A stretch of DNA of 64,000 nucleotides from Candidatus Omnitrophota bacterium (GTDB lineage Bacteria > Omnitrophota > Gorgyraeia > Zapsychrales > Fredricksoniimonadaceae), in assembly GCA_013287965.1 (NCBI GenBank), contig JABDCU010000003.1, positions 4,231 to 68,230 of the forward strand, written 5' to 3'. The position numbers and the translations under genes were made by a program. The notes beneath the pieces are model-generated. The model searched no databases, was not told the DNA's origin, and worked only from the letters and a program-made list of their open reading frames with translations. Each line of letters begins with the position of its first letter. Positions within the stretch are counted from its first letter, which is position 1. Below are positions 4,403 to 44,937 of the stretch, in pieces.

Positions 4403-5014
4403 ATGAGCGAAACTGAAGAATTTATACCGTATATCGTCAAACCCCGCGAAGATACCGGCCTTTATAATGCCAAATTCGGCATCTGGCTTTTTTTGGCTTC
4501 AGAAGTCATGCTCTTTGGTTCTTTGTTTTCCGCTTATATCCTGCTTCGTGTCGGGTCATTCACCTGGCCCGTGCAGTCTGAAATACAGAATGTGGCTATC
4601 GGTGCCATCAATAGTGTTGTCCTTCTTTCATCCAGCATATTCTTCATACGCGCCTGGGTGGCCTTGAAGGCGGATGATATAGCTAAATATAAAAGATTCA
4701 TGTATTTGGTCATTTTGTTTGCTTTTATATTCCTGTTCTTAAAAGGGGTTGAGTATTACCAGCATTTCAGCCATCATGAATATCCCAAGACCAGTGTTTT
4801 TTTGGCCATTTATTTTTTAATGACGGGCTTGCATGCCTTGCATATCATCGGCGGTATCCTTGTGAATTCTTATTATGCCGGCCCGGGCTTATATCTTAGA
4901 GATAAACCTAACGGCAAACAATGGTTCATCAATCGCGTGGAAGTGGCAGGCCTTTACTGGCACTTTGTGGATTTGGTTTGGATATTTTTATTTTCGACCT
5001 TATATTTGCTTTAA
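4403..5014 (+). CDS. ctaE: cytochrome c oxidase subunit III
   Basis: 203 aa, 5 TM; LFLASEVMLFGSLFSAY and AGLYWHFVDLVWIFLF signatures; 2 nt after ctaD stop. Confidence 0.9.
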   Translation: MSETEEFIPYIVKPREDTGLYNAKFGIWLFLASEVMLFGSLFSAYILLRVGSFTWPVQSEIQNVAIGAINSVVLLSSSIFFIRAWVALKADDIAKYKRFMYLVILFAFIFLFLKGVEYYQHFSHHEYPKTSVFLAIYFLMTGLHALHIIGGILVNSYYAGPGLYLRDKPNGKQWFINRVEVAGLYWHFVDLVWIFLFSTLYLL

Positions 5015-5042
5015 GATTCTTCGCTGCGCTCAGAATGACACA
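5014..5042 (+). repeat. hairpin (REP-like) repeat, degenerate copy
   Basis: AAGATTCTTCGCTGCGCTCAGAATGACAC; outer stem ATTCT/AGAAT and ...AATGACA end as in other copies. Confidence 0.45.
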
Positions 5043-5053
5043 GGAATAAAAAT

Positions 5054-5365
5054 ATGGAAGAGCATTCACAAAAAGACGAATTTAAACGGGATATTTTGAT
5101 CTATTTCTGTATTATTGCCCTGGTAGGGGTGATCATCTTTATCAGTCACCTGCATCTGGGGACAGGGGGAATATTCCTTATTATACCTATTGCCTGCTTG
5201 GAGGCTGGGATCTTGGGTTATTATTTCATGCACTTGATGACCAAGAAGAGGACCGTTCATTTACTTTTACTATTAACGGTCATTGTTTTTGTGACATTAT
5301 TATTTTGGCCTGCCTGGGATGTGGCGTATTCTCCGAGGACGCCCAGCGAATTTACGACTTACTAA
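5054..5365 (+). CDS. cytochrome c oxidase subunit IV (small bacterial type)
   Basis: 103 aa, 3 TM, YYFMHLM motif typical of prokaryotic subunit IV; sits between ctaE and ctaC. Confidence 0.6.
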   Translation: MEEHSQKDEFKRDILIYFCIIALVGVIIFISHLHLGTGGIFLIIPIACLEAGILGYYFMHLMTKKRTVHLLLLLTVIVFVTLLFWPAWDVAYSPRTPSEFTTY

Positions 5366-5368
5366 CTT

Positions 5369-6118
5369 ATGGATAATATTTTACAAAAACTTCTCCCCAT
5401 GCAGCCGTTAGCTTCAGTGGAAGGCCGCGATAATGATACCTTGATGTATTTGATCCACGGCCTTGTGCTTGTCCTTTTTGTGGGCTGGGCCATCTATTAT
5501 ATTGTTGTCCTGATCAAATTCCGTGAAACTAAAAATTCTAAAGCCGCTGAATCCCACGTGGCGCATACTGTTTCTTCCTACGTTGAATGGTTTGTGGTGG
5601 TCGCTGAGATCGTGCTTCTTTTTGCTTTTTCCATTCCTTTTTGGGCCGTACATCAGGCCTCTGTTCCTGAAGGCAAAAATATCATGGAAGTCAAGGTCGT
5701 GGCCCAGCAATTTGCCTGGAACGTGCATTATGCCGGTCCCGACGGAAGGTTTGGCCGGGCCAGCGCCAGGTTTTTAGAGGACAATCCCCTGGGCCTTGAT
5801 CCCAGTGACCCTGATGGCAAGGATGATATCACGACCATGAACCAGGTCTATCTGCCGGTCAATAAAACCGTTATTTTCCGTTTGACCAGTAAGGATGTAA
5901 TACACAGTTTCGGTGTGCCGGCCATGCGTGTTAAACAAGATATTATTCCAGGCATGACCACTTCAGCCTGGTTTACGCCTAATAAGATCGGCCAATATGA
6001 AATAGCTTGTTCCCAATTATGCGGTGTGGGGCATTACCGCATGCGGGGCATTATCAATGTCGTTGCCCAAGCTGACTTTGACCAATGGATAGCGCAAAAC
6101 AAAGGAATCCATGACTAA
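5369..6118 (+). CDS. ctaC: cytochrome c oxidase subunit II (CuA, no fused cytochrome c)
   Basis: Two N-terminal TM helices; CuA site DVIHSFGVP ... CSQLCGVGHYRM. Confidence 0.9.
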   Translation: MDNILQKLLPMQPLASVEGRDNDTLMYLIHGLVLVLFVGWAIYYIVVLIKFRETKNSKAAESHVAHTVSSYVEWFVVVAEIVLLFAFSIPFWAVHQASVPEGKNIMEVKVVAQQFAWNVHYAGPDGRFGRASARFLEDNPLGLDPSDPDGKDDITTMNQVYLPVNKTVIFRLTSKDVIHSFGVPAMRVKQDIIPGMTTSAWFTPNKIGQYEIACSQLCGVGHYRMRGIINVVAQADFDQWIAQNKGIHD

Positions 6119-6653
6119 TCATACTCCGACACCACGGTCCCAGGACCCTGAGGACATCCAAAAACGTGATTTTATAAAAGGCGTGACAGCAGCGATCTTA
6201 GGTTTCTTAAGCCTTGCCCTGACATGGCCCCTGGTTTCCTTCCTTATTCCTTCTTCCAACGAGGGGGCAGAGGGGAAATTTGTCAAAGTCCCTAATTTTC
6301 CCGGTCTTGGTGTTGATAAGCCAACGAAGATGACCACTGTTGAAGATGTGGATGTGCAAGCTTTTATAACGACCAAGGTGGTTTATGATATTTGGGTGAT
6401 CAAACATGCCGCGGACAAGGCAACTGTCTATTCGTCTTTATGCCCGCATTTAAATTGCCGCTATAATTTTGACAGCACTAAAAATGTCTTTGCCTGTCCT
6501 TGCCATGGCAGTGTTTTTAATGAAGACGGCAAATGCATAGCAGGGCCGGCGCCAAGGCCATTGGACACCCTTCCTTATAAGATCGAAGGCGGGGAGCTGT
6601 ACGTGCAGTATAAATTATTTAAAGCCGGTATTCCTGAAAAGATTGAGGCCTAA
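6111..6653 (+). CDS. Rieske [2Fe-2S] protein
   Basis: CPHLNC ... CPCHGSVF boxes; N-terminal KRDFIKGVTAAILG Tat-like anchor; overlaps ctaC stop by 8 nt. Confidence 0.9.
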   Translation: MTNHTPTPRSQDPEDIQKRDFIKGVTAAILGFLSLALTWPLVSFLIPSSNEGAEGKFVKVPNFPGLGVDKPTKMTTVEDVDVQAFITTKVVYDIWVIKHAADKATVYSSLCPHLNCRYNFDSTKNVFACPCHGSVFNEDGKCIAGPAPRPLDTLPYKIEGGELYVQYKLFKAGIPEKIEA

Positions 6654-8983
6654 TGACCGATTCCTCCAAAAAACCTGTATTACATGTTGTCAAAGACTGG
6701 GTCAATGAACGTACGGGACTCATAACATTTTTTTCCGAATTCTTACACGAAGAGATCCCCGGCGGCACCCGGTTTTCCTATACCTTAGGCTCGGCCTGTA
6801 TGTTCCTGTTGACCATACAGATCGTCACCGGCATCTGGCAGCTTTTTTATTATGTGCCCACCGTTGATTACGCTTATTCCAGTTTGAATTATCTGCGCCT
6901 GCAGGTGCCCTTTGGATGGCTGATCCACGGCATCCATTATTGGGGCGGCACTTTATTTACGATCATCGTCGGTCTTCATTGCCTGCGCGTTTTTATCTGG
7001 GGTTCGTATAAAAAGCCCAGGGAAATGGTATGGCTCATCGGCATTGTCCTGATCATTTTGACAGCTTTGTTCATGTTCACAGGCCCGGTGCTTCCCTGGG
7101 ACAAAGACGGTTATTTTGCAGGGCAAGTGGGCATCGGGATTGCCGGCTCCGTGCCTATTGTTGGTCCTTTAACGCAAGCGATATTGCAAGGTGCTAACAA
7201 AATGGGGCAGATGGCGCTTCTTCGCATGTATGTCCTTCATGTGGCCATTCTTCCCGCTGCCATCGGCGGATTTGTCATGCTGCACCTGATCGCTTTCCGT
7301 ACCTACGGTGAATCTGGCCCGTGGGATGAGAAAAAGCGAAAAGTTGTCGGATACTTTTGGCCGGAACAAATATTTAAAGACGTCGTCGTTACATTTTTGA
7401 TCTTTCTTTTATTGGTTTATCTCTCTGCCTTTTTCCCGGCGCCGTTTTCCGGCCTGGCAGATCCATCGGACACGCTTGTATCTCCCAAACCCGCGTGGAC
7501 CTTCCTGTTCCTTTATCAGATATTGAAAATATTCCCCGGTCCTTTGGAACCATTGGGTACTGCCGGCGTTCCTTTAATGATCGTTTTGCTTTTTGCTTCC
7601 CTGCCTTTTGTTGACAAAAGCCCGGAAAAAAATCCTTTTAAACGGGGGTTTGTGGTATTGAGCGGATTTGCTTTTGTGGGGATAGTTTTGTATTTGACAT
7701 GGCTTGGGTATATTTACAGGAGCGACGCTGAAAAGTCCCAAATGGAAGCCCCGGTAACAATCAGCCAGGATGATAGTGGAAAAATAAAATTGGCTGACCA
7801 ATATACGGCCATGGTCGCGGCCAATGCCGATAAAAAAGCTTCAGGGGAAAAGCTCTTTAAAACTTTAGGATGCACGGAATGCCACACCGTGACTGGTGTT
7901 GCGAGCAATAAACAAGGGCCTGATCTCTTGATGGCCAAAGGTAATAACCGTTCCAGTGAGTGGCTTTATACCCAAATCCTTGCCCCTCAGGCGCATAATC
8001 AAAAGACCATCATGCCGCCTTTCGCGCATTTAAGTGAGGAAAATATCAATCTTTTAGTTACTTATTTACAGGGTTTGACTCCGCCTCCGGGGGCTGCGGC
8101 ACCGCCAGCAGCAGTACCGGCAGCAGCTGCCGGTGCACCGGTGGACGCGGCTACATCTGTAAAGAATGGTGAACAATTATTTAACTCCATGGGTTGTATA
8201 CAGTGCCATACGATACAAGGCACACCGAGTAATAAGCTGGGGCCGGATTTGATCATGTCTATAGCCAAGGATAAGCCCAGCAATGACTGGCTTAAAACCC
8301 AGTTAATGACACCGCAAGCGCATAACCCGACAAGTGTCATGCCTTCGTTTGCCAGCCGTTTAAATGATGCGCAGATGAGTGACATGGTGAATTTCCTAAG
8401 CAGTTTAGCGACGAGAAAACCAACAGCGCCAGCCGCAGGGGCAGCTGTAGCAGCGGCCAGTGAAAGTCAGGAGGCTGCGCCGCCTGCCAGCAGCAGCGGC
8501 AGCGGGGTCCAAGCGCTCGGCATTATCGGTGATAAAGATCATGGGGCCATTTTATTCCATCAATCCTGTATCATGTGCCATGGCCCTCATGGTGATAATA
8601 AGACGCCCGGCTTTACAGCCTACATCACAGGAGGGTCGACACCTCCTAAAGGTGTCCCGGCACTCAATCCTATTGACCGTGCCGTCTATAACATGGATCC
8701 CCAGCTTTTCGTACAGCATATAGACCAATTTATCCAGCATGGTATCCCTAATACTGAAGGCGGGCCCAACATGCCGGCTTTTGGTGATTCGCATGCCTTG
8801 ACCCAGGCGCAGATCGCTGACCTGGAAGCCTATGTCTTGTCTCTTAATGGTGTTGACCGCACCATGATCATGAATCCGGGGATCGAGCCCAGGGAATTTT
8901 TCTACATGCTCGTTGCCATTACATCAGTCATCATCATGCTGGCTGTATTGTATTGGTTCCTGATGAAGCTGCTTAAAATTTAA
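6653..8983 (+). CDS. cytochrome b (b6 + subunit IV-like) fused to three c-type cytochrome domains
   Basis: N-terminal cyt b (IHGIHYWGG, HCLRVF, PAWTFLFLYQILK); three CxxCH (CTECH, CIQCH, CIMCH) separated by Ala/Pro-rich linkers; C-terminal TM helix. Confidence 0.9.
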   Translation: MTDSSKKPVLHVVKDWVNERTGLITFFSEFLHEEIPGGTRFSYTLGSACMFLLTIQIVTGIWQLFYYVPTVDYAYSSLNYLRLQVPFGWLIHGIHYWGGTLFTIIVGLHCLRVFIWGSYKKPREMVWLIGIVLIILTALFMFTGPVLPWDKDGYFAGQVGIGIAGSVPIVGPLTQAILQGANKMGQMALLRMYVLHVAILPAAIGGFVMLHLIAFRTYGESGPWDEKKRKVVGYFWPEQIFKDVVVTFLIFLLLVYLSAFFPAPFSGLADPSDTLVSPKPAWTFLFLYQILKIFPGPLEPLGTAGVPLMIVLLFASLPFVDKSPEKNPFKRGFVVLSGFAFVGIVLYLTWLGYIYRSDAEKSQMEAPVTISQDDSGKIKLADQYTAMVAANADKKASGEKLFKTLGCTECHTVTGVASNKQGPDLLMAKGNNRSSEWLYTQILAPQAHNQKTIMPPFAHLSEENINLLVTYLQGLTPPPGAAAPPAAVPAAAAGAPVDAATSVKNGEQLFNSMGCIQCHTIQGTPSNKLGPDLIMSIAKDKPSNDWLKTQLMTPQAHNPTSVMPSFASRLNDAQMSDMVNFLSSLATRKPTAPAAGAAVAAASESQEAAPPASSSGSGVQALGIIGDKDHGAILFHQSCIMCHGPHGDNKTPGFTAYITGGSTPPKGVPALNPIDRAVYNMDPQLFVQHIDQFIQHGIPNTEGGPNMPAFGDSHALTQAQIADLEAYVLSLNGVDRTMIMNPGIEPREFFYMLVAITSVIIMLAVLYWFLMKLLKI

Positions 8984-8986
8984 AAC

Positions 8987-10860: not shown

Positions 10861-10862
10861 AC

Positions 10863-11884: not shown

Positions 11885-13444
11885 TTAATGAACCGGTGCC
11901 AGCACAGGGATATTTTGGGCCTCTGTGCGCACACGGACAGTACGGTTTAAAAATTTAGTTGTTGGTTGGTCATTCATGTTCTTGCCCTGGATGGTCCTCA
12001 GCATTTTTTCGGCAAAATAATGCACAAAGGCTTTGAAGCCATGCAATTTTCTCAGGAAATCCCCGACGGAATTGATGGAAATGAACATGCTCCAGATCTG
12101 CTTGGGCCTTAAATAAAATTCCTTAAGGCCGATATCAATATGCTCATCAATGTCTTTATGGGAAAATTGCGGATAGGAAAGCAGGGTGCGCTGTTCGCCT
12201 GCTTCAGTCAACCAGTCTTTCCAATCCTTGGCTAAAATATAATTATTTTCACGGGCCCATTTATACAGCGATGTGCCTGGATACGAGGCCACACCGGTGA
12301 TCTGGATGGTGTCTAAGGGCATGGACTTGGCGAAATCAATAGTTTTACGGGCAGATTCTTTGGTTTCACCAGGAGCACCGATCATAAAGCAGCCATGAAT
12401 GGTGAATCCAAGGCGATGGGCTTCTTTGGAATATTCATGGGCCATATCCACCGACACGCCGCCTTTGCGGATGACGCGTAAATTTTCATCAGTGCCGAAT
12501 TCAAAACCTGTCATCAGCATGCGGCAGCCGGATTCACGCATTAAAGGCAGAAGACTTAGATCAGTGTTCACGCGCATATTGCACGACCAGCTGATGCGTT
12601 TATTGATCCCTTTAGCAATGATGAGATTGCAGACATCAATGACATGCTGGCGTTCTGCCGCGAAGGTGTCTGTTTCAAACATGATCTCGCGGATCTGCGG
12701 ATGAAGTTTTAAATTGTGTTCCATTTCAGCGACGACCAGATCAGCCCGGCGATTGCGTAATTTATAACCATACATCAATTGAGGATCACGGCAAAAAGTG
12801 CAGGCATTATTACAGCCGCGGCCGGTGATCAGGGTCAAAAAGGGGAATTTTTTGCCGCCGTCAGGATACCATTCCGGCTGGATCAGTTGCCAGGCAGGGA
12901 AAGGAAGCTCGTTGACGTCAATATCAGGGCGGGGCATGTTCTTAATGACTTGTGCCTCTTTAACCCAGCAAAGTCCTAGATTTTTATCGTCGGCAACGCC
13001 ATTAGCCAGATCGCGCAGGGTATAATCGTATTCACGGGGCAGGATATAATCCACGACCCCGCGGCCAATTTCAAAAGTATTATCAATTTCAGCAGTGGCA
13101 TGCTGGCCCACAAAAACGACCTTGCATTTAGCGCGGTTTTTGATGATCTGGGCTTGTTCAATATCGGAATAAATGGAAGGCGTGGTTACATGCATGACCA
13201 AAAGGTCAGGCTTGAGATCCACGGTTGTTTCAATGGACTCTTCGGCAGTGAAATTACGCGCGGCCGCTTCGACAAAATGAGTGTCATGACCGGCGTCAAT
13301 AAGCACCTGGGCCGCGGTCAGCAAATACTCAGGATGGCGTTGGACACGCCCACGAGACTTAGCTGCCCACCGGGCCACACGCACGAAATTGTCGCCAAAG
13401 GAAGGGTTAAGAATTACTACTTTCATGATGTTTCTATAGTACAT
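11885..13444 (-). CDS. B12-binding (class B) radical SAM enzyme
   Basis: N-terminal cobalamin-binding-type domain (MKVVILNPSF...), CNNACTFC = Cx3Cx2C cluster motif; start may be ATG 13426. Confidence 0.85.
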   Translation of the reverse strand: MYYRNIMKVVILNPSFGDNFVRVARWAAKSRGRVQRHPEYLLTAAQVLIDAGHDTHFVEAAARNFTAEESIETTVDLKPDLLVMHVTTPSIYSDIEQAQIIKNRAKCKVVFVGQHATAEIDNTFEIGRGVVDYILPREYDYTLRDLANGVADDKNLGLCWVKEAQVIKNMPRPDIDVNELPFPAWQLIQPEWYPDGGKKFPFLTLITGRGCNNACTFCRDPQLMYGYKLRNRRADLVVAEMEHNLKLHPQIREIMFETDTFAAERQHVIDVCNLIIAKGINKRISWSCNMRVNTDLSLLPLMRESGCRMLMTGFEFGTDENLRVIRKGGVSVDMAHEYSKEAHRLGFTIHGCFMIGAPGETKESARKTIDFAKSMPLDTIQITGVASYPGTSLYKWARENNYILAKDWKDWLTEAGEQRTLLSYPQFSHKDIDEHIDIGLKEFYLRPKQIWSMFISINSVGDFLRKLHGFKAFVHYFAEKMLRTIQGKNMNDQPTTKFLNRTVRVRTEAQNIPVLAPVH

Positions 13445-13947: not shown

Positions 13948-14490
13948 ATGAAAAGAGATTGCTTCGTCGTCCCGCCCCGGGCGGGACTCCTTGCAATGAC
14001 AGTATTGCTAATTCTTATAGGAGGCTTAGCCATGGCTCAATCAACTCAAAATACGATCGATGTTTATGATGCTTCCTCTAATTCCGTCATACAAACCCAA
14101 AAAGTAGTAAAGACAGAGGAAGAATGGAAGAAAATATTGACCGCGCAGCAATATGAGGTGACTCGAGGGCAAGGGACAGAAGCCCCTTTTACCGGAGAGT
14201 ATGTTAATAATCACCGTAAAGGTATCTATAAATGCGTTGGCTGCGGGCTGGACCTGTTTTCGTCAGAGGATAAATTTGAATCCGGCACCGGCTGGCCCAG
14301 TTTCACCAGGCCTATCAATAAATTAAATGTTGCTTACGTAAAAGATGATAGTCTTTTTATGACCCGTATCGAAGTGCATTGCCCGCGCTGCGGGGCGCAT
14401 TTGGGCCATGTTTTTGATGACGGTCCGGCGCCGACGGGCAAGCGTTTCTGCATGAATTCAGCGGCGCTCAAATTTGTGGAGCAGAAATGA
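13948..14490 (+). CDS. msrB: peptide-methionine (R)-S-oxide reductase, exported
   Basis: CVGCGLDLF ... CPRCGAHLGHVFDDGP ... RFCMNSAAL; SD AGAGGGA before ATG 13948; alternative start ATG 13996 supplied by the repeat. Confidence 0.9.
   Translation: MKRDCFVVPPRAGLLAMTVLLILIGGLAMAQSTQNTIDVYDASSNSVIQTQKVVKTEEEWKKILTAQQYEVTRGQGTEAPFTGEYVNNHRKGIYKCVGCGLDLFSSEDKFESGTGWPSFTRPINKLNVAYVKDDSLFMTRIEVHCPRCGAHLGHVFDDGPAPTGKRFCMNSAALKFVEQK
13954..14001 (+). repeat. hairpin (REP-like) repeat inside the msrB 5' end
   Basis: AGAGATTGCTTCGTC-GTCCCGCC-CCG-GGCGGGAC-TCCTTGCAATGACA; perfect 8-bp inner stem. Confidence 0.8.
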
Positions 14491-15867: not shown

Positions 15868-18570
15868 ATGGCCTCATTTGATAAAAGATCCGTTGCTAAA
15901 AAGCTGAAAGTCAATTCATCCCCATTTACCATTTATTCCCTGCCCGAATTCGCTAAAAAGCGGGGGCTTGATATTTCCAAACTGCCATTTTCCATCCGCA
16001 TCCTTTTAGAAAGCGCTCTGCGTAATTTTGATAATTATCAGGTCACTGAAAAAGATATCAATACCATCGTCGCCTGGAAGCCCAACGAGAAGAAAGATGA
16101 GATCGCCTTTAAACCCGGCCGCGTCATCCTACAGGATTTTACCGGGGTTCCTTGCGTGGTAGACATGGCTGCCATGCGCGATGCCATGAAGAATTTGAAG
16201 GGGGACATTAAGAAAATAAATCCGCAGGTGCAATGCGACCTGGTCATTGACCATTCCGTGCAGGTAGATTCTTTTGGTACGCCTAAAGCCTTGGGTGAAA
16301 ACGTTACTCTGGAATTTGAACGCAATGAGGAACGCTATGAATTCCTGAAGTGGGGACAAAGCGCCTTGCAGGATTTTAGGGTGGTGCCGCCGGCCACGGG
16401 CATTGTGCATCAGGTCAATCTTGAATATCTGGCCAAAGGTGTTTTAAAGAAAAAGGACGGCAAAGATACGGTGGCTTATCCTGACAGCTGCGTCGGTACC
16501 GATTCGCATACCACCATGATCAATGGCCTTGGCATTGTTGGTTGGGGTGTGGGCGGGATCGAGGCTGAATCCGTTATGTTGGGCGAACCCATTTATATGC
16601 TTATGCCGGAAGTCGTGGGCTTTCGTATTAAAGGAAAATTAAAAGATGGCGTTACTGCGACTGATCTGGTCCTCACCGTCACACAAATTTTGCGTAAAAA
16701 AGGTGTCGTGGAAAAATTTGTGGAATTTTTTGGTGAAGGGCTGCAATATTTGCCGCTGCCGGACCGTGCCACCATTGCCAACATGGCGCCGGAATATGGG
16801 GCAACCATTGGTTTATTCCCTATTGATGATGAAACGCTTGCTTATTTAAAATTATCCGGAAGAACTGCGGCAGAAGTGGCTTTAGTGGAAAAATATTATA
16901 AAGCCCAGGGCATGTTCTATACGGCCAAAACACCTGAATGTATTTATTCCGATATTTTAGAATTAGACCTGTCAACCGTCGAGCCTTGCCTGGCAGGCCC
17001 CAAGCGGCCGCAAGACAGGGTGGCGTTAAAAGACCTGAAAACTAATTTCGCACAATCCTTAACTGCGGACATTGCTTCCCGTGGTTATGGTTTAGCTTCG
17101 GGTGACCTGAATAAAACAGTAGCCGTTGAAAATGGAAAGAGCAACGAATCCCTTGCTCATGGGTCTGTTGTTATCGCGGCCATCACTTCTTGCACCAACA
17201 CCTCAAACCCATCGGTGCTGATCGCTGCCGGGCTTTTGGCTAAAAAAGCCGTTGAAAAGGGCTTGATGCCGCCTCATTATGTTAAAACCTCTTTTGCTCC
17301 GGGCTCACAGGTGGTGGAAGAATATTTAAGGACAGCCGGCTTATTGAAATTTTTGGATAAGATCAGGTTTAATATCGTGGGCTATGGATGCACCACCTGT
17401 ATCGGGAACTCCGGCCCCTTGCCTGAGCCGGTGGCCAATGCTATCAATAAAGGCAACTTGGTTGCAGCGGCAGTACTTTCCGGTAACCGTAATTTTGAAG
17501 GCCGTGTGAATCCGTATACCAAAGCAAATTTCCTGGCTTCACCGCCCTTAGTCGTGGCCTATGCCTTGGCTGGGCGCGTGGACATTGATTTAAACAATGA
17601 ATCTCTGGGCAAAGATAAAAAAGGTAAGGCCGTGTTTCTCAAGGATATTTGGCCGACTCAAAAAGAAACCGCCTTGGCGGTGCGCAAATTTGTCAAAGCT
17701 GCCATTTTCCGCCGCTGCTATAAGAACGTGGACCGTGGCAATAAAAACTGGAATGCCATTAAAACCACTAAGTCTGATCTTTTTAACTGGGATGACAAAA
17801 GCACCTATATTCAAAATCCGCCTTATTTTGTGGGCATGAAATCAAGCGTTGATCCCATTAATGGCATCGCCCAAGCCAGATGTTTGGTCATGGTGGCTGA
17901 TTCTGTTACCACCGACCATATTTCTCCTGCAGGGGCCATTGCCAAGGATTCTCCGGCTGGAAAATATTTGATGGAGCAGGGGGTAACACCTAAAGATTTT
18001 AATAGCTACGGCGCCCGTCGGGGTAATGATCGCATCATGACCCGCGGCACTTTTGCCAATATCCGTTTGCGCAATTTAACAGCGCCTGGCACGGAAGGCC
18101 CGTGGACCACGTATTGGCCTTCCAAAGAAAAAATGTTCATTTATGACGCAGCCATGAAGTACAAAGAAAGCAAAACACCGCTGATCGTCCTGGCTGGCAA
18201 AGAATACGGCACCGGCTCTTCCCGCGATTGGGCGGCTAAAGGTACCACCTTGCTTGGCATCCGGGCCGTCATTGCGGAGAGCTTTGAACGTATTCATCGC
18301 AGTAATTTATGCGGCATGGGTGTTCTGCCTTGTGTCTTTAAGCCGGGTGAGAACTATGCTTCTCTGGGATTAAAAGGGGACGAGACCTTTAATTTTACAA
18401 ATCTGGACAATAACTTAAAACCCCGTCAGGAACTGACCATTGAAGCGGTTTTATCCGATGGCAGCAAAAAGCAATTTAATGTCATTGCCCGTGTCGACAC
18501 GCCGGTGGAAGTGGACTATTTACGTAACGGTGGGATTTTGCAGACTGTTTTGAGGAAATTGGCAAAGTAA
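15868..18570 (+). CDS. acnA: aconitate hydratase A
   Basis: Full-length AcnA/IRP-type ([29 protein letters not shown]); start set to ATG 15868 (GGGAG SD) rather than GTG 15838. Confidence 0.95.
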
Positions 18571-25375: not shown

Positions 25376-26475
25376 TCATTGGTGTTCCCAAGGAAATCAA
25401 AAACAATGAATGCCGTGTGAGCATTTTACCGGTAGGCGTGGAAACCCTGGTTCGCGCCGGCCACCAAGTTTTGATAGAGCACACTGCCGGTATCGGCAGC
25501 GGGATCACCGACGTTGATTATGAAACAGTGGGCGGGGAAATAATGGAAACGCCTGACATGATCTACTCCCAGGCAGAGATGATCGTCAAGATCAAGGAAC
25601 CCCAGCCTTCCGAATATAGACTGCTTAAAAAAGACCAAATTGTTTTTACTTATTTTCACTTTGCCGCCAGCCGTGAATTGACTGAAAGCTTGCTGGAGCG
25701 CAAGATCACAGCCCTGGCCTATGAAACTCTTCAGACGGAAGATGGGGAATTGCCATGTTTGACACCCATGTCTGAAGTGGCCGGCCGCATGGCCGTGCAC
25801 GAGGGGGCTAAATATTTGGAAGAACCCATGAAGGGCAGGGGAATTTTGTTGGCTGGTGTCCCAGGCGTTTATCCGGCGGAAGTGACCATTATCGGTGCCG
25901 GTGTCGTCGGCTCCAATGCTTGTAAAATGGCAGCGGGCTTAGGGGCAAATGTGACGGTTTTGGACATTAATTTAAACCGCCTGCGCTATCTGGAAGAGAT
26001 CATGCCTCCCAATGTCCACACCCTCATGAGCAATTCCCATAATATCCGTGAAGCGGTGCTTAGAGCTGACCTTGTCATCAGCTCTGTGTTGATCCGCGGG
26101 GCCAAAGCCCCGTGCCTGATCGACCGCAAATTAGTTTCCCAAATGAAAAAAGGGTCAGTGATCGTTGATGTGGCTATTGACCAGGGTGGCTCTGTTGAAA
26201 CCTCACGGCCCACCACCCATGAAAATCCCATTTATGTGGTTGATGGCGTGGTGCATTATTGCGTGACCAATATGCCCGGGGCTGTGGCCCGCACCAGCAC
26301 CTATGCCTTGACCAACGCCACCTTTCCCTATATCTTGAAGGTTGCCAACGACGGTTTTAAGAAATGGGTGAGGGATTCCCATGAGATACGCACGGCCTTA
26401 AACATGACGGAAGGGCATTTGACGATCAAAGAAGTGGCAGAGACTTTTGACATCCCTTACAAAAAATTTTCATAG
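25372..26475 (+). CDS. ald: alanine dehydrogenase
   Basis: [27 protein letters not shown] Rossmann motif; ATGA overlap with fumC. Confidence 0.95.
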
Positions 26476-28182
26476 AGGCCGCCAGACGCTGATCTCATAT
26501 GGCCTGTGGTCTTGAGGCGCGTAAACTAAAAGATATCCGTCATATTTGTAATATTTTTTAATATCATCGCCGATCCCCAAAGGTAAAAGAGTCGGCGGCA
26601 GCATGATCAGGTCAAATTTCTTATTCTCCACCCTGTTCCTGATGTTCCCAAAAAACATCAGCTGTTGAATATACACCCGAGCATCTTCTTTAAGCCAGCC
26701 TTTCATCCAATAGTTCCGTTCACCGCCTAATTGAAAATATTCCGTCTGGCCGTTATTCAGGACTTCTTTGTTTTGTTCGATCAATAGGGGTGCTATCAAA
26801 GAAGTATCAAGGATGTGTTGATGCTGGTTGACAAGCAAAGAAACCTCCACCCAGCTCAAGGTGTTTTTATTAAAGTATTTATAATTTTGGTCAGAAGTCA
26901 TCGTATATAGGTTATAGATCAAAAAAGGGACGCACAGCAACGGCCAAAAAGAACTACGGCTAAAGATCCAGGCCGCACCTATCAAAAGAAAGGGGGACAG
27001 TAATTGAAAGAAGTACCAAAGAAAGGCCCCGGAGTTGCGGCCCATTGACATATATAGAACCAATGAAGAGCATAATCCGGCGTAGAGGGCTAATCCTATG
27101 TCACTGCGAGCAAAGCGAAGCAGTCTTTTAAAAGAGATTGCTTCGTCGCCCTTCGGGCTTCTCGCAACGACGCTAATATTTTTAAGAATATACCCTAAAA
27201 TAAAAATCCCCATTAATATAAAGACCCATTGATGCAGGTCCCTATACGTAATGATCTGTGTGTGCAGCCTTTCCATGCTCGCCCAGGCAGGGGCCATGTT
27301 GACCTCGGAAAAAAAACAATTATCAAAATAAGCCGGAAAAATCTGGTTGATCACCCCGATGCTGATGATTAACAGCGGCAATAATACAAAAAAGTAGAAA
27401 AGGGATTTCATTTTAGAGACAAAAAGAAATAAATACGATAACATCACGAGGGCCCCTAAAAAGGTGTACATCTTGGTATAAAAAGCTAAGATCCCAAATA
27501 GGACACTTACAATTAACGACTTGTAAGAATATTGGCAAAACCAGGGGATAAACAGGGTCAATAAAAAAAAGAACGTGCCTGTGGCCCCGGGGTCAATGGT
27601 GGCAGTGCTGGTCCCCGGAAATAATAAAGAAGAATAAAGCATTAAAACAGCCCAAATGTTCAACAAAACAGGGACAGCCATTTTTTTAAGGACAAAGAAG
27701 GCCAGCACGCAGCAGCCTAATATAGAAAAAGCGGTAATTACCCTGTGGATGAGCATGGTGGTGCCAAAGATCTTGGCCCAAGGCCAGGCTAACAAGGGAT
27801 AAATGATCCCATACTCATTCATATATTGAGGCTGAAGGGACATGTCGTAAGGATTGAGCCCTTTGACCAAAGCATCGGTGCTTGACATCATTGCACTTTC
27901 CCTAAATGCAATAGGAAAAGGGAAGGTCACGGAAGCAAGGTGATAATGGAGAAGGCGAAGGGCGAAATAGGCCAGGGCAAACGCAAAGATCACCTGGAAA
28001 ATGCGTGAAACGAGGCGTAAAGAGGGGGCCATGAAATATATACTAACAAACAAAATCATTGACGGGAAGAATAAAGAAAATAGAATAGGTATATGCCAAT
28101 CAAGCACAACTCCTTTGAAGAGCGCCGTGACAGTGTGCGCGCCAAGCGCATCATTACTGTCCGCCACCGTTTGGTCAAGCAC
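26470..28182 (-). CDS. large polytopic membrane protein, GT-C/ArnT-PMT-like (putative glycosyltransferase); carries in-frame repeat insertion
   Basis: >12 hydrophobic helices; start uncertain (28182 overlaps the PilZ gene by 90 nt; Met at 28059 avoids it). Confidence 0.5.
   Translation of the reverse strand: MLDQTVADSNDALGAHTVTALFKGVVLDWHIPILFSLFFPSMILFVSIYFMAPSLRLVSRIFQVIFAFALAYFALRLLHYHLASVTFPFPIAFRESAMMSSTDALVKGLNPYDMSLQPQYMNEYGIIYPLLAWPWAKIFGTTMLIHRVITAFSILGCCVLAFFVLKKMAVPVLLNIWAVLMLYSSLLFPGTSTATIDPGATGTFFFLLTLFIPWFCQYSYKSLIVSVLFGILAFYTKMYTFLGALVMLSYLFLFVSKMKSLFYFFVLLPLLIISIGVINQIFPAYFDNCFFSEVNMAPAWASMERLHTQIITYRDLHQWVFILMGIFILGYILKNISVVARSPKGDEAISFKRLLRFARSDIGLALYAGLCSSLVLYMSMGRNSGAFLWYFFQLLSPFLLIGAAWIFSRSSFWPLLCVPFLIYNLYTMTSDQNYKYFNKNTLSWVEVSLLVNQHQHILDTSLIAPLLIEQNKEVLNNGQTEYFQLGGERNYWMKGWLKEDARVYIQQLMFFGNIRNRVENKKFDLIMLPPTLLPLGIGDDIKKYYKYDGYLLVYAPQDHRPYEISVWRPL
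27099..27126 (-). repeat. hairpin (REP-like) repeat, inverted copy, inside CDS
   Basis: Reverse complement AGACTGCTTCGCTTTGCTCGCAGTGACA; read through as RLLRFARSD. Confidence 0.7.
27133..27172 (+). repeat. hairpin (REP-like) repeat inside CDS
   Basis: AGAGATTGCTTCGTC-GCCC-TTC-GGGC-TTCTCGCAACGACG; read through (minus frame) as VVARSPKGDEAIS. Confidence 0.75.
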
Positions 28183-37675: not shown

Positions 37676-37790
37676 AGTGTTTCTCGTGTGATTCCACTGC
37701 TACTCATAGTAATCTTAATTAATTCATACATAAATTAGGGTGACGCACAACTTAATTCTAACTGGATTCCTACTTTCGCACGAATGACAA

Positions 37791-37855: not shown

Positions 37856-37894
37856 AGATTGCTTCGTCGACCTTCGGCCTCCTCGCAATGACAC
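37856..37894 (+). repeat. hairpin (REP-like) repeat; terminator-like on minus strand
   Basis: AGATTGCTTCGTCGACCTTCGGCCTCCTCGCAATGACAC preceded by A6 (T6 on minus strand). Confidence 0.8.
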
Positions 37895-38926: not shown

Positions 38927-38929
38927 ATG

Positions 38930-40769: not shown

Positions 40770-40810
40770 TGCCACATTCTACTATTAACTAGATTTGAAA
40801 AAGGTTAAAA

Positions 40811-40836
40811 ATTGCTTCGCTACGTTCGTAATGACA
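40811..40836 (+). repeat. hairpin (REP-like) repeat, short copy
   Basis: ATTGCTTCGCTACGTTCGTAATGACA preceded by AAAAA. Confidence 0.55.
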
Positions 40837-40845
40837 CGCGTGCCA

Positions 40846-40870
40846 GATTTTCGCTTTCGCGAGAATGACA
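40846..40870 (+). repeat. hairpin (REP-like) repeat, short copy
   Basis: GATTTTCGC-TTTC-GCGAGAATGACA (8-bp stem with one G-T pair). Confidence 0.55.
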
Positions 40871-40927
40871 TAATTATCCGAATTTATAGTGCTACCTTCC
40901 AGGATTTTCGATCTTCTAGGTGATAGG

Positions 40928-41299: not shown

Positions 41300-41310
41300 T
41301 TGTAGACCTC

Positions 41311-41844
41311 CTAGGAAGCGTTAGAAGCTTTAAGAAATTCTTCATGGTTAATTAATGGTACAGCATAAAGTGACGATAACCTTGAATCCTCATTAAAATA
41401 TTTTTGAATGCTGACAGTATTAGCGGCAGGAGCAAACTGTTCAGCAATCAAGTCTTCATTTTTTATAGCTTTAATAATTCTTAGAATACATATTGGTTGA
41501 TTTGCTCCCGAACTTTTGGAGAATAGAGTTAAAAATATTCCATCTCTAAGATGTCCTGGATTATCTAAAACAATCAAAAGTAAACCGCCGTATAGACCGT
41601 CTCCCTTTACTTGTCTTTTTACTTTAATTGGACTTAAGAAATTTAGATAATACTTATATGATTGTCTTATAACTTTTAAAACGAAAATTAAAAAAAGTGC
41701 ACATGCTATTAAAATTAATCTGTACGTAAAGTCATTTGTGAAAGGGAAAAGATAAAGAATTAAGGTAAGTATAAAGAAAATAATTCCATCAACGATATTC
41801 CAGTATTTAAATAAAATTTCTATTATAAAGTTAAACACACTCAT
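41311..41844 (-). CDS. hypothetical 177-aa membrane protein (3 N-terminal TM helices)
   Basis: Hydrophobic N-terminus MSVFNFIIEILFKYWNIVDGIIFFILTLILYLF...; soluble C-terminal ~100 aa. Confidence 0.55.
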   Translation of the reverse strand: MSVFNFIIEILFKYWNIVDGIIFFILTLILYLFPFTNDFTYRLILIACALFLIFVLKVIRQSYKYYLNFLSPIKVKRQVKGDGLYGGLLLIVLDNPGHLRDGIFLTLFSKSSGANQPICILRIIKAIKNEDLIAEQFAPAANTVSIQKYFNEDSRLSSLYAVPLINHEEFLKASNAS

Positions 41845-42013
41845 TGGTAGTTGTCCTTAGTATGCTGGCTTTTGGAACTAATGCTTGCTCTTTAGTTCTT
41901 TTTCATGGATCAAAAGTAGATTTTTGACACTTACGTTGGGCTGCTTTATCTTGTACATTGTACGATAAGTTTTACGAAAATAAAACAGGTTATTTAGAAC
42001 GGCTTTTCGCGAA

Positions 42014-42070
42014 GCGAACCCCCCGCCGCACCAGAGAAAAACCACCGTTGCGTTCATCTACAACGTCTGG
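42014..42070 (+). repeat. 57-nt conserved island element, copy 2
   Basis: GCGAACCCCCCGCCGCACCAGAGAAAAACCACCGTTGCGTTCATCTACAACGTCTGG. Confidence 0.85.
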
Positions 42071-42092
42071 TGTAAAAAACACAATATTCTGG

Positions 42093-42121
42093 ATCCCCGA
42101 CAGAAACATTCGGGGATGACA
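42093..42121 (+). repeat. hairpin repeat variant
   Basis: ATCCCCGA-CAGAAACAT-TCGGGGAT-GACA. Confidence 0.5.
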
Positions 42122-42143
42122 CTATTACGCAATACTACCTCCC

Positions 42144-42760
42144 CTACGGCCGGGACCAGGACCAGTAGCGTGGTTTGAACTTCTTGACCGCTGTCCCCTT
42201 CTTCTTATGTTGAGCTAATTGATCGATGAAAGACCAAAATTCCTTCTCTGTGAGTTTGGATTTCATCACAGACAGTAAGAAGCTTGTAAGTACTACCTTT
42301 TTAGGGTCATTCGGCTTTAAAAGATTCAAAACACAATACCATGGATCATGGCGGTCAAGACAATATTTGGAATGAGTTGAAAAAACCGGGTTCCCGCAGA
42401 TGATGCAACGGGTTGATCGTTTTTTGGGTGTCTTAAGGGGTGAAAAGTTTGATTTATTAGTCTGGAAGTAATAACCACCTTACTATTATCGCAGGGTATC
42501 CAATGGTCAAATTCCAAATACCACGGACTTTCGATTTCTTTCAGCTCTAGAGGTGTTTTGGTGTAGTAACATATATAACCATACTTTTTTATAAAATCCC
42601 AAATGGCGTTACGAGTTTTATTGGGAAAACGTCTTATTTTCATTCGATAATTGATATAGGCACAGGTGGGACAATATTTTGAGCCGTAATTTACCGGTTT
42701 TGTGCAGATGCAGCAGCTTGGGATAGGTTTTTGGAGAGTTAGATCCAAGTTTTTAGGCAT
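42144..42760 (-). pseudogene. decayed paralogue of the tandem zinc-ribbon/HNH-like gene
   Basis: 144-aa ORF = unit 1 truncated after VVITSRLIN. A third frame then reads CIICGNPVFSTHSKYC...HDPWYCVLNLLKPNDPKKVVLTS...LTEKEFW...PRYWS = unit 2 with internal deletion and DH replaced by NL. Confidence 0.7.
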
Positions 42761-42824
42761 AATTGAGGCATTATGTCAGAAAAATGGAAAATCGGCAAGA
42801 AGCTGGTATTGAGGGGCGCGCGAA

Positions 42825-42881
42825 GCGAAATCACTGGCGCGCCAGAGAAAAACCACCGTTGCGTTCATCTAAAAGGGCTGG
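42825..42881 (+). repeat. 57-nt conserved island element, copy 3
   Basis: GCGAAATCACTGGCGCGCCAGAGAAAAACCACCGTTGCGTTCATCTAAAAGGGCTGG. Confidence 0.85.
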
Positions 42882-42971
42882 CAGAAAAAACATATCGGTG
42901 TGAGCCATGGCTCTAAAGGATGGGGCCAGTGGGATATGGAGTTAGTGGGCATGGAAGGCTCCTTTAAGAAC

Positions 42972-42999
42972 TTGACAGGTTAAAGCTAAATGATATAAT
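42972..42999 (+). promoter_or_regulatory. near-consensus sigma70 promoter pointing at the tandem repeats
   Basis: TTGACA (42972-42977), 16-nt spacer, TGaTATAAT (TATAAT 42994-42999). Confidence 0.7.
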
Positions 43000-43006
43000 T
43001 TAAGTG

Positions 43007-43125
43007 AATCACGATGAGAGGACACCCAAAGGCTGGTAGCTTATGCCGCGGCGATGCCTCTCGATTTAAATTAATCACGATGAGAGGGTAACCAAAGGGG
43101 TTGGTCCCGCGGCGATGCCCTCTCG
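43007..43125 (+). ncRNA. candidate small RNA: two tandem ~60-nt structured repeats (66-nt period)
   Basis: AATCACGATGAGAGG...GCGATGCCTCTCG (43007-43066) and AATCACGATGAGAGGG...GCGATGCCCTCTCG (43073-43125); stem grows by a compensating G/C pair; strand inferred from the promoter. Confidence 0.45.
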
Positions 43126-43127
43126 CT

Positions 43128-43607
43128 TCACCTCTCGTATTCAAACTTTTCCCTTAATTCATTTATAAAAGACGTATCGACTCCAAATTTCTTCAAAAGA
43201 GTTGAATATTTATAACGATTGGGAATTAATAATCTTTCCAGCTTACCTTTCTTTTCTAAATATTCAATCAGGCAATAAAAATCCCCATCCCCTGTAATAA
43301 TCACTGCTTTGTCATAATTGTTCCACTCAATCATAGTATGAAGCACAAGTTCTGCGTCAACATTTCCTTTGACCTTCCCTTCTTTAAGATCAAGCGTGGG
43401 CTTAAACACTAAAATATAGCCCTGTTGTTGCAAGATCTTATACATGGTTTGTTGTGTAATTATATATCCTATAAATAGGAATGCTTTTGTGATCCCGTAT
43501 TTATCTTTGAGATATTGACGAAAATTTTTGTAATCAAGTCGCCAACCTTGGTCTCTGATAGATAGATTTAGATTCTGGCTATCGATGAAGGCGTAATTAT
43601 TGGGCAC
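43128..43607 (-). CDS. NYN-domain (LabA/DUF88-like, PIN-related) putative ribonuclease
   Basis: YAFIDSQNLNLS, GNVDAELVLH, VIITGDGDFYCLIEYL; GTG start. Confidence 0.8.
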   Translation of the reverse strand: MPNNYAFIDSQNLNLSIRDQGWRLDYKNFRQYLKDKYGITKAFLFIGYIITQQTMYKILQQQGYILVFKPTLDLKEGKVKGNVDAELVLHTMIEWNNYDKAVIITGDGDFYCLIEYLEKKGKLERLLIPNRYKYSTLLKKFGVDTSFINELREKFEYER

Positions 43608-43608
43608 A

Positions 43609-43639
43609 GTTCCCCCTCTTTGGGTTTGCGCGGGGGAAC
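43609..43639 (-). promoter_or_regulatory. SD-sequestering hairpin in the NYN leader
   Basis: mRNA GUUCCCCC-gcgcaaacccaaaga-GGGGGAAC, 1 nt before GTG; right arm contains the SD. Confidence 0.55.
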
Positions 43640-43726
43640 GCTTGGTTTAGATTAAGATTAGTTGATCCGGTTTGGGAGAAACCGGTTGTTATATTAAAAT
43701 CCTCGGGGAAAGGATTGAACAAAAGG

Positions 43727-43755
43727 ATTATACTTTACTTTGCTCAGTAGGACAA
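43727..43755 (-). promoter_or_regulatory. promoter of the NYN gene
   Basis: Minus strand TTGTCC (43755-43750), 17 nt, TATAAT (43732-43727). Confidence 0.6.
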
Positions 43756-43789
43756 GCGAAACCACCGCTGCGTTCACCCCAAGGGTTGG
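43756..43789 (+). repeat. 57-nt element, copy 4 (internally deleted form)
   Basis: GCGAAACCACCG|CTGCGTTCACCCCAAGGGTTGG: lacks the 22 nt between the two AACCACCG direct repeats. Confidence 0.7.
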
Positions 43790-44709
43790 CCCAAAATGGA
43801 TTTGCGCTTGCGCGGGAAATGGCTGGGCCCGTACGGCCGGGACCAGTAGCGGAGTTTGCATTTGCGTACCGGTGTCCCCTTCCTAAAATGATTGGCGAAC
43901 TGGTGGATGAGATACCAGAATTCTTTTTCTGTCAGGTCTTGCTTCATGGCGTTGACCATCCGTGAGGTGATCACGAGCCTCTTGGGATTAGTCGGCGTCC
44001 AGTGATCGAAAGTCAAATACCAGGGACTGTGTTCATCAAATAAATCCAGCGGCATGCCGGTGTAATAGCAGATATAGCCGTACTTGCGTATATAGTTCCA
44101 AATGGCTTTTCTGGCCTTCAGGGGAAAGCGTTCATTGATCATGCGCTTGGCGATCGTTGAACACTCCGGGCAGTATTTATGCCATCTATTGGGAGTCGGC
44201 TGCCGACAGCAACCAGCACAACACCGTTGCCCTTTTACAGGTTTTATTAATCTGTACCAATGTTTCAGGTGCTTCTTTTTGACCTTCAGATGTTTCCTTC
44301 TGTGATCGTCCAGCGCTATCACATAATACCGGAATTCTTTCTGTGTCATGTCCTGCTTCATGTCGTTGACGATCGCGGCACAGATGACGATCTTGATGGG
44401 ATCTCCCGGGGTCCAATGATCAAAATCAAGATACCAGGGGCTTGTATCATCGTTTAATTCTAGAGCAACTTTTATGTAATAGTCTCTATAGTATTCAGCG
44501 TGGATGTAGTCCCGTACGCCTTGCTGGGCCTTTGCAGGGAATTTCTTTCTATGCATCCGGCGGGTTGTTTTGAGACAGTCACGGCAATAGATGGACCAGT
44601 TAGAAAAAACCTTTTTGCGGCCGCAGAGGCAACAGGTTTTTAAAGGTTTTCTGGATATGTGGTGGCTTTTGTAGGTAGATACGGCCATATTCAGGCTTTT
44701 GATGTTCAT
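43774..44709 (-). CDS. tandem double zinc-ribbon/HNH-like nuclease-domain protein
   Basis: Two ~150-aa units, each Cx2C...Cx2C ribbon + (C)YYT..SPWYL(D/T)FDHWTP...V(N)xMKQD(L/M)T(E/Q)KEF, fitting the HNH DH...N...K core. Confidence 0.55.
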   Translation of the reverse strand: MNIKSLNMAVSTYKSHHISRKPLKTCCLCGRKKVFSNWSIYCRDCLKTTRRMHRKKFPAKAQQGVRDYIHAEYYRDYYIKVALELNDDTSPWYLDFDHWTPGDPIKIVICAAIVNDMKQDMTQKEFRYYVIALDDHRRKHLKVKKKHLKHWYRLIKPVKGQRCCAGCCRQPTPNRWHKYCPECSTIAKRMINERFPLKARKAIWNYIRKYGYICYYTGMPLDLFDEHSPWYLTFDHWTPTNPKRLVITSRMVNAMKQDLTEKEFWYLIHQFANHFRKGTPVRKCKLRYWSRPYGPSHFPRKRKSILGQPLG

Positions 44710-44733
44710 ATTATGTGTGGGATTATTGCAGTA

Positions 44734-44762
44734 AGACTAGCGCTTTTAGAGAGTTAGCGCAA
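44734..44762 (-). promoter_or_regulatory. conserved promoter module, copy P2
   Basis: Minus strand AAAAAAGCTTGCGC, 17 nt incl. CTAAAAGCGC, TAGTCT; 24 nt upstream of ATG 44709. Confidence 0.5.
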
Positions 44763-44838
44763 GCTTTTTTAGGTAGCAGCCAAGAAACCAACCATTGTTT
44801 TTGCAGATCAGACAGGGGTTTTTCACCCTTTTCGCGGA

Positions 44839-44895
44839 GCGAAACCACCGCCGCACCAGAGAAAAACCACCGTTGAATTCATCTAAAAGGGCTGG
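44839..44895 (+). repeat. 57-nt conserved island element, copy 5
   Basis: GCGAAACCACCGCCGCACCAGAGAAAAACCACCGTTGAATTCATCTAAAAGGGCTGG. Confidence 0.85.
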
Positions 44896-44903
44896 TAGCA
44901 AAA

Positions 44904-44937
44904 AGATTGCTTCGGGGCTACGCCCCTCGCAATGACA
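44904..44937 (+). repeat. hairpin (REP-like) repeat
   Basis: AGATTGCTTC-GGGGC-TAC-GCCCC-TCGCAATGACA, abuts the stop codon of the mazG remnant. Confidence 0.8.

Follow-up and report, generated by a model that had tools for sequence, protein, structure and literature searches.

What are the short hairpins scattered through a 64,000-nucleotide stretch of a Candidatus Omnitrophota genome (contig JABDCU010000003.1, positions 4,231 to 68,230; hereafter the window), and how did they come to lie there? An earlier note on this DNA had grouped nine of them into one family resembling repetitive extragenic palindromes (REPs), and had suggested that those in an island double as intrinsic terminators and that the family may be mobilised by a REP-associated tyrosine transposase (RAYT) encoded nearby, or a related one. 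The nine sites are copies of one repeat superfamily, and they belong to the REPs that carry a CGTC or TGTC tag. These constitute one of the two large REP superfamilies, the one without a known mobilising enzyme.

A superfamily of tagged hairpins

The sequences described earlier are present at all nine sites, far above chance (Table 1). Three exact matches to ATTGC-N10-40-GCAATGACA are present, against 0.06 expected, a count reached by none of 100 shuffles. A structural rule combining a YGTC tag, a perfect stem of at least 5 bp that starts with AT and a CY tail retrieves five window copies, while 100 dinucleotide shuffles give a mean of 0.38 and a maximum of 2. Fuzzy searches recover all nine sites, together with a doubtful match at 37765-37788. 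Read on the tag strand, the general unit is YGTC-AT(stem)…(stem)AT-CY. The tag is TGTC in eight of the nine copies and CGTC in the ninth, and copies in relatives and other phyla are alike in this respect.

The window copies represent four structural subtypes. Subtype A, represented by 13954, 27099, 27133, 37856, 40811 and 44904, has the form TGTC-ATTGC-GA-G[variable stem-loop]C-GAA-GCAAT-CT on the tag strand, whereas 5014 is the sole window member of subtype B. Copies 40846 (C-like) and 42093 (subtype D), each likewise the only one of its kind in the window, represent separate subtypes with stems of ~8 bp. Stems start with AT (ATTGC, ATTCT, ATTCTCGC, ATCCCCGA) except in 27099 (AC) and 27133 (GT). 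The outer ATTGC/GCAAT stem had been called constant, which holds for four copies: it is exact in 13954, 37856 and 44904, and in 27133 with a G.T first pair. Elsewhere it is replaced by compensatory variants (ACTGC/GCAGT in 27099, ATTCT/AGAAT in 5014), carries one mismatch (40811) or gives way to the stems of the two other subtypes. The dimer at 27099-27172 has its tags on the outside.

Table 1. Repeat copies and RAYT end motifs in the window
Feature	Position	Strand	Description
REP subtype B	5014..5040	-	tag strand TGTC ATTCT GA GCGCAGC GA AGAAT CT; found by structural rule and fuzzy search
REP subtype A, 48 nt	13954..14001	-	8-bp inner stem GTCCCGCC-CGG-GGCGGGAC
REP subtype A	27099..27126	+	left half of tag-outward (HH) dimer; fuzzy search
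REP subtype A, CGTC tag	27133..27172	-	right half of HH dimer; fuzzy search
REP subtype A	37856..37893	-	low-G+C island; CTTTTTT next on minus strand
REP subtype A, short degenerate form	40811..40836	-	ATTAC/GCAAT; fuzzy search
REP, CGTC-1 architecture (C-like)	40846..40870	-	TGTC-ATTCTCGC-GAAA-GCGAAAAT-C; 7 of 8 stem pairs
REP subtype D	42093..42121	-	TGTC-ATCCCCGA-atgtttctg (9 nt)-TCGGGGAT-CC
REP subtype A	44904..44937	-	inner hairpin GGGGC-GTA-GCCCC; CTTTTTGC next on minus strand
Possible decayed CGTC-1-like copy, uncertain	37765..37788	-	GTCATTCGTGCGAAAGTAGGAATC; 4 consensus mismatches; equal matches in shuffles
RAYT 18-nt end AAAACCGGGACACATTGA, three direct copies	52411-52428, 51821-51838, 50990-51007		minus-strand unit

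In the window, Rfam gives no match at gathering thresholds and none overlapping a copy at E values up to 5, and a scan for tRNA and tmRNA genes finds none. Two other kinds of repeat were considered and set aside. The copies contain no R''/R' cores (RYYYAAC ... GTTRRRY) and the genes scanned include no integrase, which speaks against integron attC sites; regular spacers, as expected of a CRISPR array, are absent from the window.

Di Nocera, De Gregorio and Rocco (2013; PMC3733652) divide REPs into two superfamilies, one tagged GTAG and the other CGTC. In the latter, TGTC often stands in for the CGTC tag, nearly all stems open with AT, and a short CCA tail follows. HH dimers predominate, several families occur per genome, and intragenic copies are frequent. 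Families CGTC-1 to CGTC-4 have stems of 8-9 bp and loops of 4-5 nt, and CGTC-1 includes dRS3 of Neisseria and RPE-6 of Rickettsia. CGTC REPs are described there as flanking no tyrosine transposase gene and as elements that “apparently lack a dedicated transposase” (PMC3733652). Among later papers citing this classification, none was found to identify a mobilising transposase.

The window repeats belong to this superfamily, since tag, AT-start stem and HH dimers match the published description, and the short tail does so in part. Further shared traits are dispersal mostly at gene ends, in-frame intragenic copies, the coexistence of several families and the lack of a flanked transposase gene. 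The CGTC-1 form is common to window copy 40846 and many copies in relatives, and 40846 alone has the published 8-9-bp stem and 4-5-nt loop; subtype D joins an 8-bp stem to a 9-nt loop. In place of the CCA tail, subtypes A and B carry CTC or CTT in this lineage, and the phyla reached here extend well beyond the five reported (PMC3733652). None of the peptides typical of subtype A appears in the intragenic tables of that paper, and a literature search by sequence strings in both orientations returned only primers and unrelated matches. Subtypes A and B form a structural variant not found described in the text available; some subtype A copies may nonetheless be filed there under a family with “loops of different length”. 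For GTAG-3 and GTAG-14 the paper describes two-tier loops whose inner parts are self-complementary.

That the inner hairpin varies in sequence yet stays self-complementary is borne out by copies from elsewhere. Among the matches listed from other genomes and viral contigs, 349 copies contain 181 distinct inner segments, and those of 15-20 nt have a best stem averaging 4.47 bp, compared with 2.46 bp for shuffles. Changes on both sides are seen at every one of the four variable pairs in 28 distinct 31-nt copies; the observed covariation score was reached by none of 500 shuffles, and slid controls scored far lower. The covariation and the excess of stem length indicate that the structure is under selection. 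In about two thirds of these 28 copies the outer two variable positions form G.A/A.G instead of Watson-Crick pairs, so that the element has a paired stem in some copies and tandem purine mismatches in others. Inner loops beyond the window are mostly GAA, GCA or GTA, usually a GNA triloop, and the commonest inner units on the tag strand are GCGAAGC, GCGCAGC and GCGTAGC, the first being the most frequent. This is the same unit as the extraordinarily stable DNA mini-hairpin d(GCGAAGC)/GCGNAGC (PMC13037366), set here within a larger tagged element. The two-tier fold is the minimum-energy DNA structure computed for 13954, 27099, 37856 and 44904, and the dimer region 27097-27174 folds at -17.5 kcal/mol (z = -2.97).

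Gain, loss and spread of the repeats

Relatives were collected by a metagenome scan with the radical-SAM protein encoded at 11885-13444, which yielded 80 loci, most of them syntenic with window positions 2-24 kb and sharing 74-80% nucleotide identity with it in the closest cases, down to ~66% in others. The 5014 copy abuts the stop codon of COX3 inside the cox operon. This junction is empty in six relatives, with only 2-15 nt from stop to start, and filled in seven relatives and the window, where a REP lies right after the stop codon in one orientation throughout. Its occupants differ: subtype B in the window and L304, C (the CGTC-1 form) in L261, L282 and L255, and D in L278, L302 and L253. 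Filled and empty states are interleaved on a neighbour-joining tree of the flanking genes, which is star-like and indicative only.

Other junctions behave similarly. The Trx/MsrB junction is empty in 14 relatives and filled in the window, L261 and L267, at three nearby positions and in one orientation. Four further junctions (8983, 9997, 14490, 15089) hold no REP in the window but do so in some relatives, and those of the tricarboxylic acid (TCA)-cycle genes, 0-10 nt long in the window, hold single REPs or dimers in L130. Subtype D occurs in L130, L278, L302 and L252 as well, and the published CGTC-1 form, ATTCCCGC-GAAA-GCGGGAAT, is found among copies in relatives. Tails are subtype-specific in the relatives, CTC/CTT for A and B and CCA(G/T) for C and D; in Alphaproteobacteria A and B have CCAG instead. 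Past the tail the sequence is A/T-rich and often includes a stop codon, a TAA-proximal tendency. Given filled and empty states and different subtypes at one junction, REPs are gained and lost at gene junctions within this genus. The ~80 syntenic relatives constitute a natural series of filled and empty sites, usable for deriving insertion rules and for an enzyme co-occurrence search.

The relatives also contain a long REP subtype, E, in L258 (~window 2139), L304 (~9997), L282 and L306 (~14490) and L130 (15093-15146). It consists of a perfect 9-bp stem, ATTGCGAGC/GCTCGCAAT or its B-type equivalent, and a three-tier loop of ~30 nt, GGTCCTCATACCGGACACTCGCAG. Palindromes that are not REPs occupy some of the same junctions, in L261 and L252 at 8983, L265 at 14490 and L304 at 15089, as CAACACCGGGTGTTG pairs, GGGACACAATACTTAATTC pairs and GGGGACAG/CTGTCCCC hairpins. 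The junctions at 8983, 14490 and 15089 thus appear to receive small palindromic elements of various kinds.

The family reaches far beyond these relatives and is very large. A scan with the pattern GATTGCTTCG-N4-34-CGCAATGAC, taking one genome per species, found the same 19-20 fixed bases of subtype A in stretches of at least 120 genome records, which belong to many phyla. Among the matches listed are Alpha-, Gamma- and Deltaproteobacteria (many of them Bradyrhizobium), Chloroflexota, Bacteroidota (Pedobacter, Mucilaginibacter, Flavobacterium), Cyanobacteria (Nostoc, Microcoleus), Patescibacteria, Planctomycetota, Zixibacteria, Omnitrophota, Latescibacterota, a Sporomusa and Helicobacter rodentium. 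Adjacent pairs in these stretches are tag-outward in 56 of 70 cases, with spacers of 9-60 nt. Head-to-tail tandem arrays of subtype A were also observed, with four copies recurring every 33 nt in a contig classed as viral (L177, 2695-2818) and with 13-18-nt spacers in Chloroflexus (L009, 1372-1868).

The same subtype A ends occur in at least 120 IMG/VR viral contigs. One of these (L146) encodes portal, major head, adaptor and tail-fibre proteins, a tailed-phage structural module, and between 3339 and 12744 has a subtype A REP in nearly every intergenic gap, all in one orientation; another (L167), with portal and major head genes, has several copies. REPs thus find their way into phage-type DNA, and could pass from host to host by this route.

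GTAG REPs and the REPIN-RAYT systems of Escherichia coli and Pseudomonas, reportedly characterised by Nunvar in 2010, Bertels and Rainey in 2011, and Ton-Hoang and Messing in 2012, have in common with the present elements short tagged hairpins, inverted dimers, hundreds of copies per genome and a working model of single-stranded DNA handled by a Y1 enzyme. They differ in that the tag here is YGTC instead of GTAG and the RAYT is not flanked by REPs. REPINs are lineage-specific and vertically inherited, whereas the REP ends of the window are nearly identical across phyla and in phage-like contigs, which argues against the purely vertical inheritance pictured for REPINs.

All eight single window copies lie on one strand, although gene direction flips at ~32.5 kb, and in nine loci with at least three isolated copies 28 of 31 isolated singles follow the local majority strand (P ~0.001). 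HUH/Y1 elements insert strand-specifically, using single-stranded DNA at the replication fork. The uniform local strand fits insertion of this kind, and by analogy REP insertion would be strand-specific too.

Taken as a whole, the following explanation appears probable. The REP units would be small non-autonomous palindromes; each has an unpaired YGTC tag, an AT-start stem and a CY(N) tail. In subtype A, a 5-bp outer stem, ATTGC/GCAAT, and a conserved purine internal loop (GA opposite GAA) enclose an inner hairpin closed by a constant G-C pair, whose stem is free in sequence and length and whose loop is usually a GNA triloop (e.g. GCGAAGC). The units may travel as hairpins of single-stranded DNA that a sequence-specific enzyme cuts and joins in trans, most plausibly an HUH/Y1-type transposase that reads the tag and the foot of the stem. 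Insertion would be strand-specific and would prefer A/T-rich, TAA-proximal sites at gene ends, or sites already holding a REP. The RAYT of the window would be a separate element, and terminator or translational effects of individual copies a by-product.

Several observations weigh against this explanation. No gene family is enriched beside the copies in 120 genome and 120 viral loci, where the neighbours are only common families (ABC transporters in the former, phage structural proteins in the latter), and the step through single-stranded DNA and an HUH enzyme is drawn by analogy with GTAG REPs and IS200/IS605 only. At the ~75-80% nucleotide identity of the relatives, filled and empty junctions reveal neither a target-site duplication nor a clean target motif, and at two junctions in relatives the copies lie on the other strand, so that the strand bias is local, not absolute. 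Nearest-neighbour folding makes most single copies no more stable as DNA than shuffles: only three of nine clearly exceed them, with z of -2.6 or lower (13954 at -11.9 kcal/mol, z = -2.65; 42093, z = -3.76; 44904, z = -2.70), and 40811 is no more stable than its shuffles. Subtypes A and B, whose outer stem of 5 bp is followed by a conserved GA/GA(A) internal loop and then by an inner hairpin of variable sequence, depart from the CGTC families as set out in the accessible text of PMC3733652. Finally, many of the viral matches resemble alphaproteobacterial prophages or gene transfer agent clusters in host chromosomes, and “viral” is accordingly to be read broadly.

Could the copies instead be immobile, either serving a conserved host protein as binding or structural sites, or arising by convergent local sequence evolution? 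A fixed internal loop and tag do resemble a protein recognition surface, orientation is constant per junction across relatives, and no transposase family was found beside copies in the 120 genome and 120 viral loci. Sites differ between relatives, however, and three unrelated subtypes share one junction; insertions interrupt coding sequence, copies lie in phage structural modules, and identity over 19-20 nt across phyla is not expected from convergence. Immobility is accordingly regarded as highly improbable.

The neighbouring RAYT and its own ends

The mobilising enzyme proposed in the earlier note is encoded by the RAYT open reading frame (ORF) at 50990-51667 on the minus strand. It was correctly recognised as a Y1 transposase: Pfam Y1_Tnp matches with E = 7.8e-15, and both the HUH motif (residue 60) and the tyrosine motif (YVENNP, residue 119) are present. 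Its score against NCBIfam REP_Tyr_transpos is 62.9 bits, below the cutoff of 80, and a PDB sequence search with it returned no match. Close homologues (65-85% identity) occur in many related metagenome contigs, and the named ones among the best 120 matches come from Omnitrophota and Aminicenantes.

The gene is accompanied by terminal sequences of its own (Table 1). The AAAACCGGGACACATTGA copy that forms the end of the RAYT ORF pairs with AATGTGTTCCG at 50964-50974 into an 11-bp hairpin followed by T6. In five homologues (L123, L124, L332, L333, L334) the same end motif, as AAAACYGGGACACATTGA, stands ~70 nt upstream of the RAYT start, and in all of these except L332 an inverted copy, TNAATGTGTCCCGGTTTT, lies over the RAYT stop codon; in the window the 3' copy is direct, with an inverted partner nearby. 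Additional solo or paired copies lie near the homologues, e.g. at 17999/18027 in L333 and 13951-14025 in L334. These copies have the appearance of a family of small palindromes associated with this RAYT clade. The window gene resembles the “TIRYT” RAYTs with long terminal inverted repeats of PMC3733652 in having its own repeats of ~18 nt and few extra copies nearby, and differs from them in that its 3' end does not make a simple inverted repeat. It also fits RAYT groups 1, 4 and 5, which are less associated with REPs (Bertels, 2017; PMC5581495). The RAYT cassette lies between two direct copies of a 22-nt repeat, AAGGACAAAAAGTACCGGGATT (51840-51861 and 50935-50956), a pattern suggestive of an insertion into the 3' end of the TPR gene or of a duplication of that end.

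The proposal that this RAYT, or a close paralogue, mobilises the REPs through a shared GTGTC foot has several points in its favour. The enzyme is intact, with HUH and catalytic tyrosine motifs, the lineage keeps the gene in many related contigs, and the REPs are demonstrably mobile in this lineage. GTGTC can be read in four window copies as well as in the RAYT ends, and CCGGACAC within the subtype E loop is close to the RAYT end CCGGGACAC, a resemblance that may be due to chance. The shared foot is real, though in the RAYT ends TGTC lies paired within the stem, so that these ends lack an unpaired tag. The RAYT is flanked by REPs neither in the window nor in seven homologue loci (five distinct genes), and its 18-nt ends, with their extra copies nearby, look like its natural substrate. 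Three loci with a homologue have no REP within 20 kb, and tblastn with the window RAYT found no homologue in ~240 REP-bearing loci, its matches being confined to loci fetched through the RAYT or its homologues. Each homologue lies in a different gene neighbourhood, unlike the conserved RAYT locus of REPIN-RAYT systems. The REP also occurs in many phyla besides the two that account for the named homologues, and PMC3733652, the one systematic study of such repeats, reports no CGTC REP flanking a tyrosine transposase gene either. Mobilisation by the adjacent gene is hence considered unlikely; the RAYT is most likely a separate insertion-sequence-like unit with its own terminal repeats and not a dedicated mobiliser.

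A broader variant would have RAYTs of the terminal inverted repeat (TIR) type mobilise CGTC/TGTC REPs in trans by way of (G)TGTC, with REPs inserting at, or replacing, REPs already present at a junction. This is a speculative idea with a small chance of being right. If true, it would explain how three subtypes came to occupy one site in the same orientation in sister genomes, and it would resolve the 2013 conclusion that CGTC REPs exist without a transposase.

Terminator-like copies and insertions in coding sequence

It had also been claimed that copies in the low-G+C island follow minus-strand genes, are succeeded by a T-run and so act as intrinsic terminators. A T-run is present after three of the five island copies and missing after the other two, and a simple terminator scan calls none of the window copies. 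A plausible RNA hairpin with a U-run is formed by 44904 (-15.1 kcal/mol, then CUUUUUGC), which the folding predicts to be the best terminator-like copy, and perhaps by 37856 (-11.5 kcal/mol). The claim is consequently weak for the family as a whole.

A stronger form of it would be that the hairpins are kept mainly as RNA elements, whether as intrinsic terminators or as 3' stabilisers, especially in the island. Both copies just named lie 3' of minus-strand genes, and REPs elsewhere are reported in PMC3733652 to lie mostly 3' of ORFs and possibly to act as RNA. The negative terminator scan speaks against such a role, as do two window copies that are antisense to operons and two that lie inside coding sequence. 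In the relatives the tails are CTCTTAA or CCAG, with no U-runs. Where the flanking genes are co-directional, copies are oriented almost at random with respect to them (20 versus 11 in genome loci and 32 versus 35 in viral loci), which argues against a general RNA or terminator role. Such a role would moreover leave the identical ends across phyla and the filled and empty sites unexplained. It is quite improbable that RNA function maintains the family; within the account of mobile REPs, a terminator role is at most incidental.

Coding sequences have received REPs as well. The 13954 copy sits in frame after ATGAAA in the region encoding the MsrB signal peptide, where relatives have a lipoprotein-type signal peptide (MNKI.LIL...NGGLC) and the window reads MK-RDCFVVPPRAGLLAMT-VLLILIGGLA. 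The GCAATGACA of this copy provides an alternative in-frame ATG, and the predicted RNA hairpin of the copy (-20.7 kcal/mol; window 13948-14042) begins 8 nt past the first one. This may change both the actual start of MsrB and how strongly it is expressed.

The dimer at 27099-27172 lies inside the gene for a 529-aa membrane protein (26470-28059, minus strand) and encodes VVARSPKGDEAISFKRLLRFARSD, 24 residues of a hypervariable loop. In a homologue (P0138) the same loop holds another REP-type peptide, SLRGSEATEAIS; several homologues are without most of the loop, and most others have unrelated sequence there. In-frame insertion tolerated in loops or N-termini is likewise known from the RPEs cited in PMC3733652, its counterparts here being the copies in the signal peptide of MsrB and in the 529-aa protein's loop. 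RPE-1 is much longer, however, and the sequences of RPE-4 and RPE-6 are unlike subtype A. For annotation this means that REP copies create spurious or extended ORFs and alternative starts, as in MsrB.

The 529-aa protein itself is multi-pass, has no Pfam match and is conserved in Omnitrophota, with invariant motifs that include YFDNCFF and LWYFFQLLSP. Its neighbours are PTPS_related and other membrane proteins, and it is possibly a member of a glycosyl- or lipid-transferase family.

The wider setting of these copies is that of an Omnitrophota genome. The window matches Logan assemblies of run SRR8431262, the named homologues come from Candidatus Omnitrophota, and one related record is labelled Omnitrophota. 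Housekeeping operons (cox genes, MsrB/MsrA, aconitase and TCA-cycle genes) fill 1-32 kb. The low-G+C island (33-43%) extends from 32.5 to 53.7 kb beside these core genes and encodes a DNA methylase, NYN and Bro-N domain proteins, a toxin-antitoxin pair and the Y1 enzyme. After the island comes a 3417-aa ORF on the minus strand (53721-63974), with a G+C content of 52-56%.

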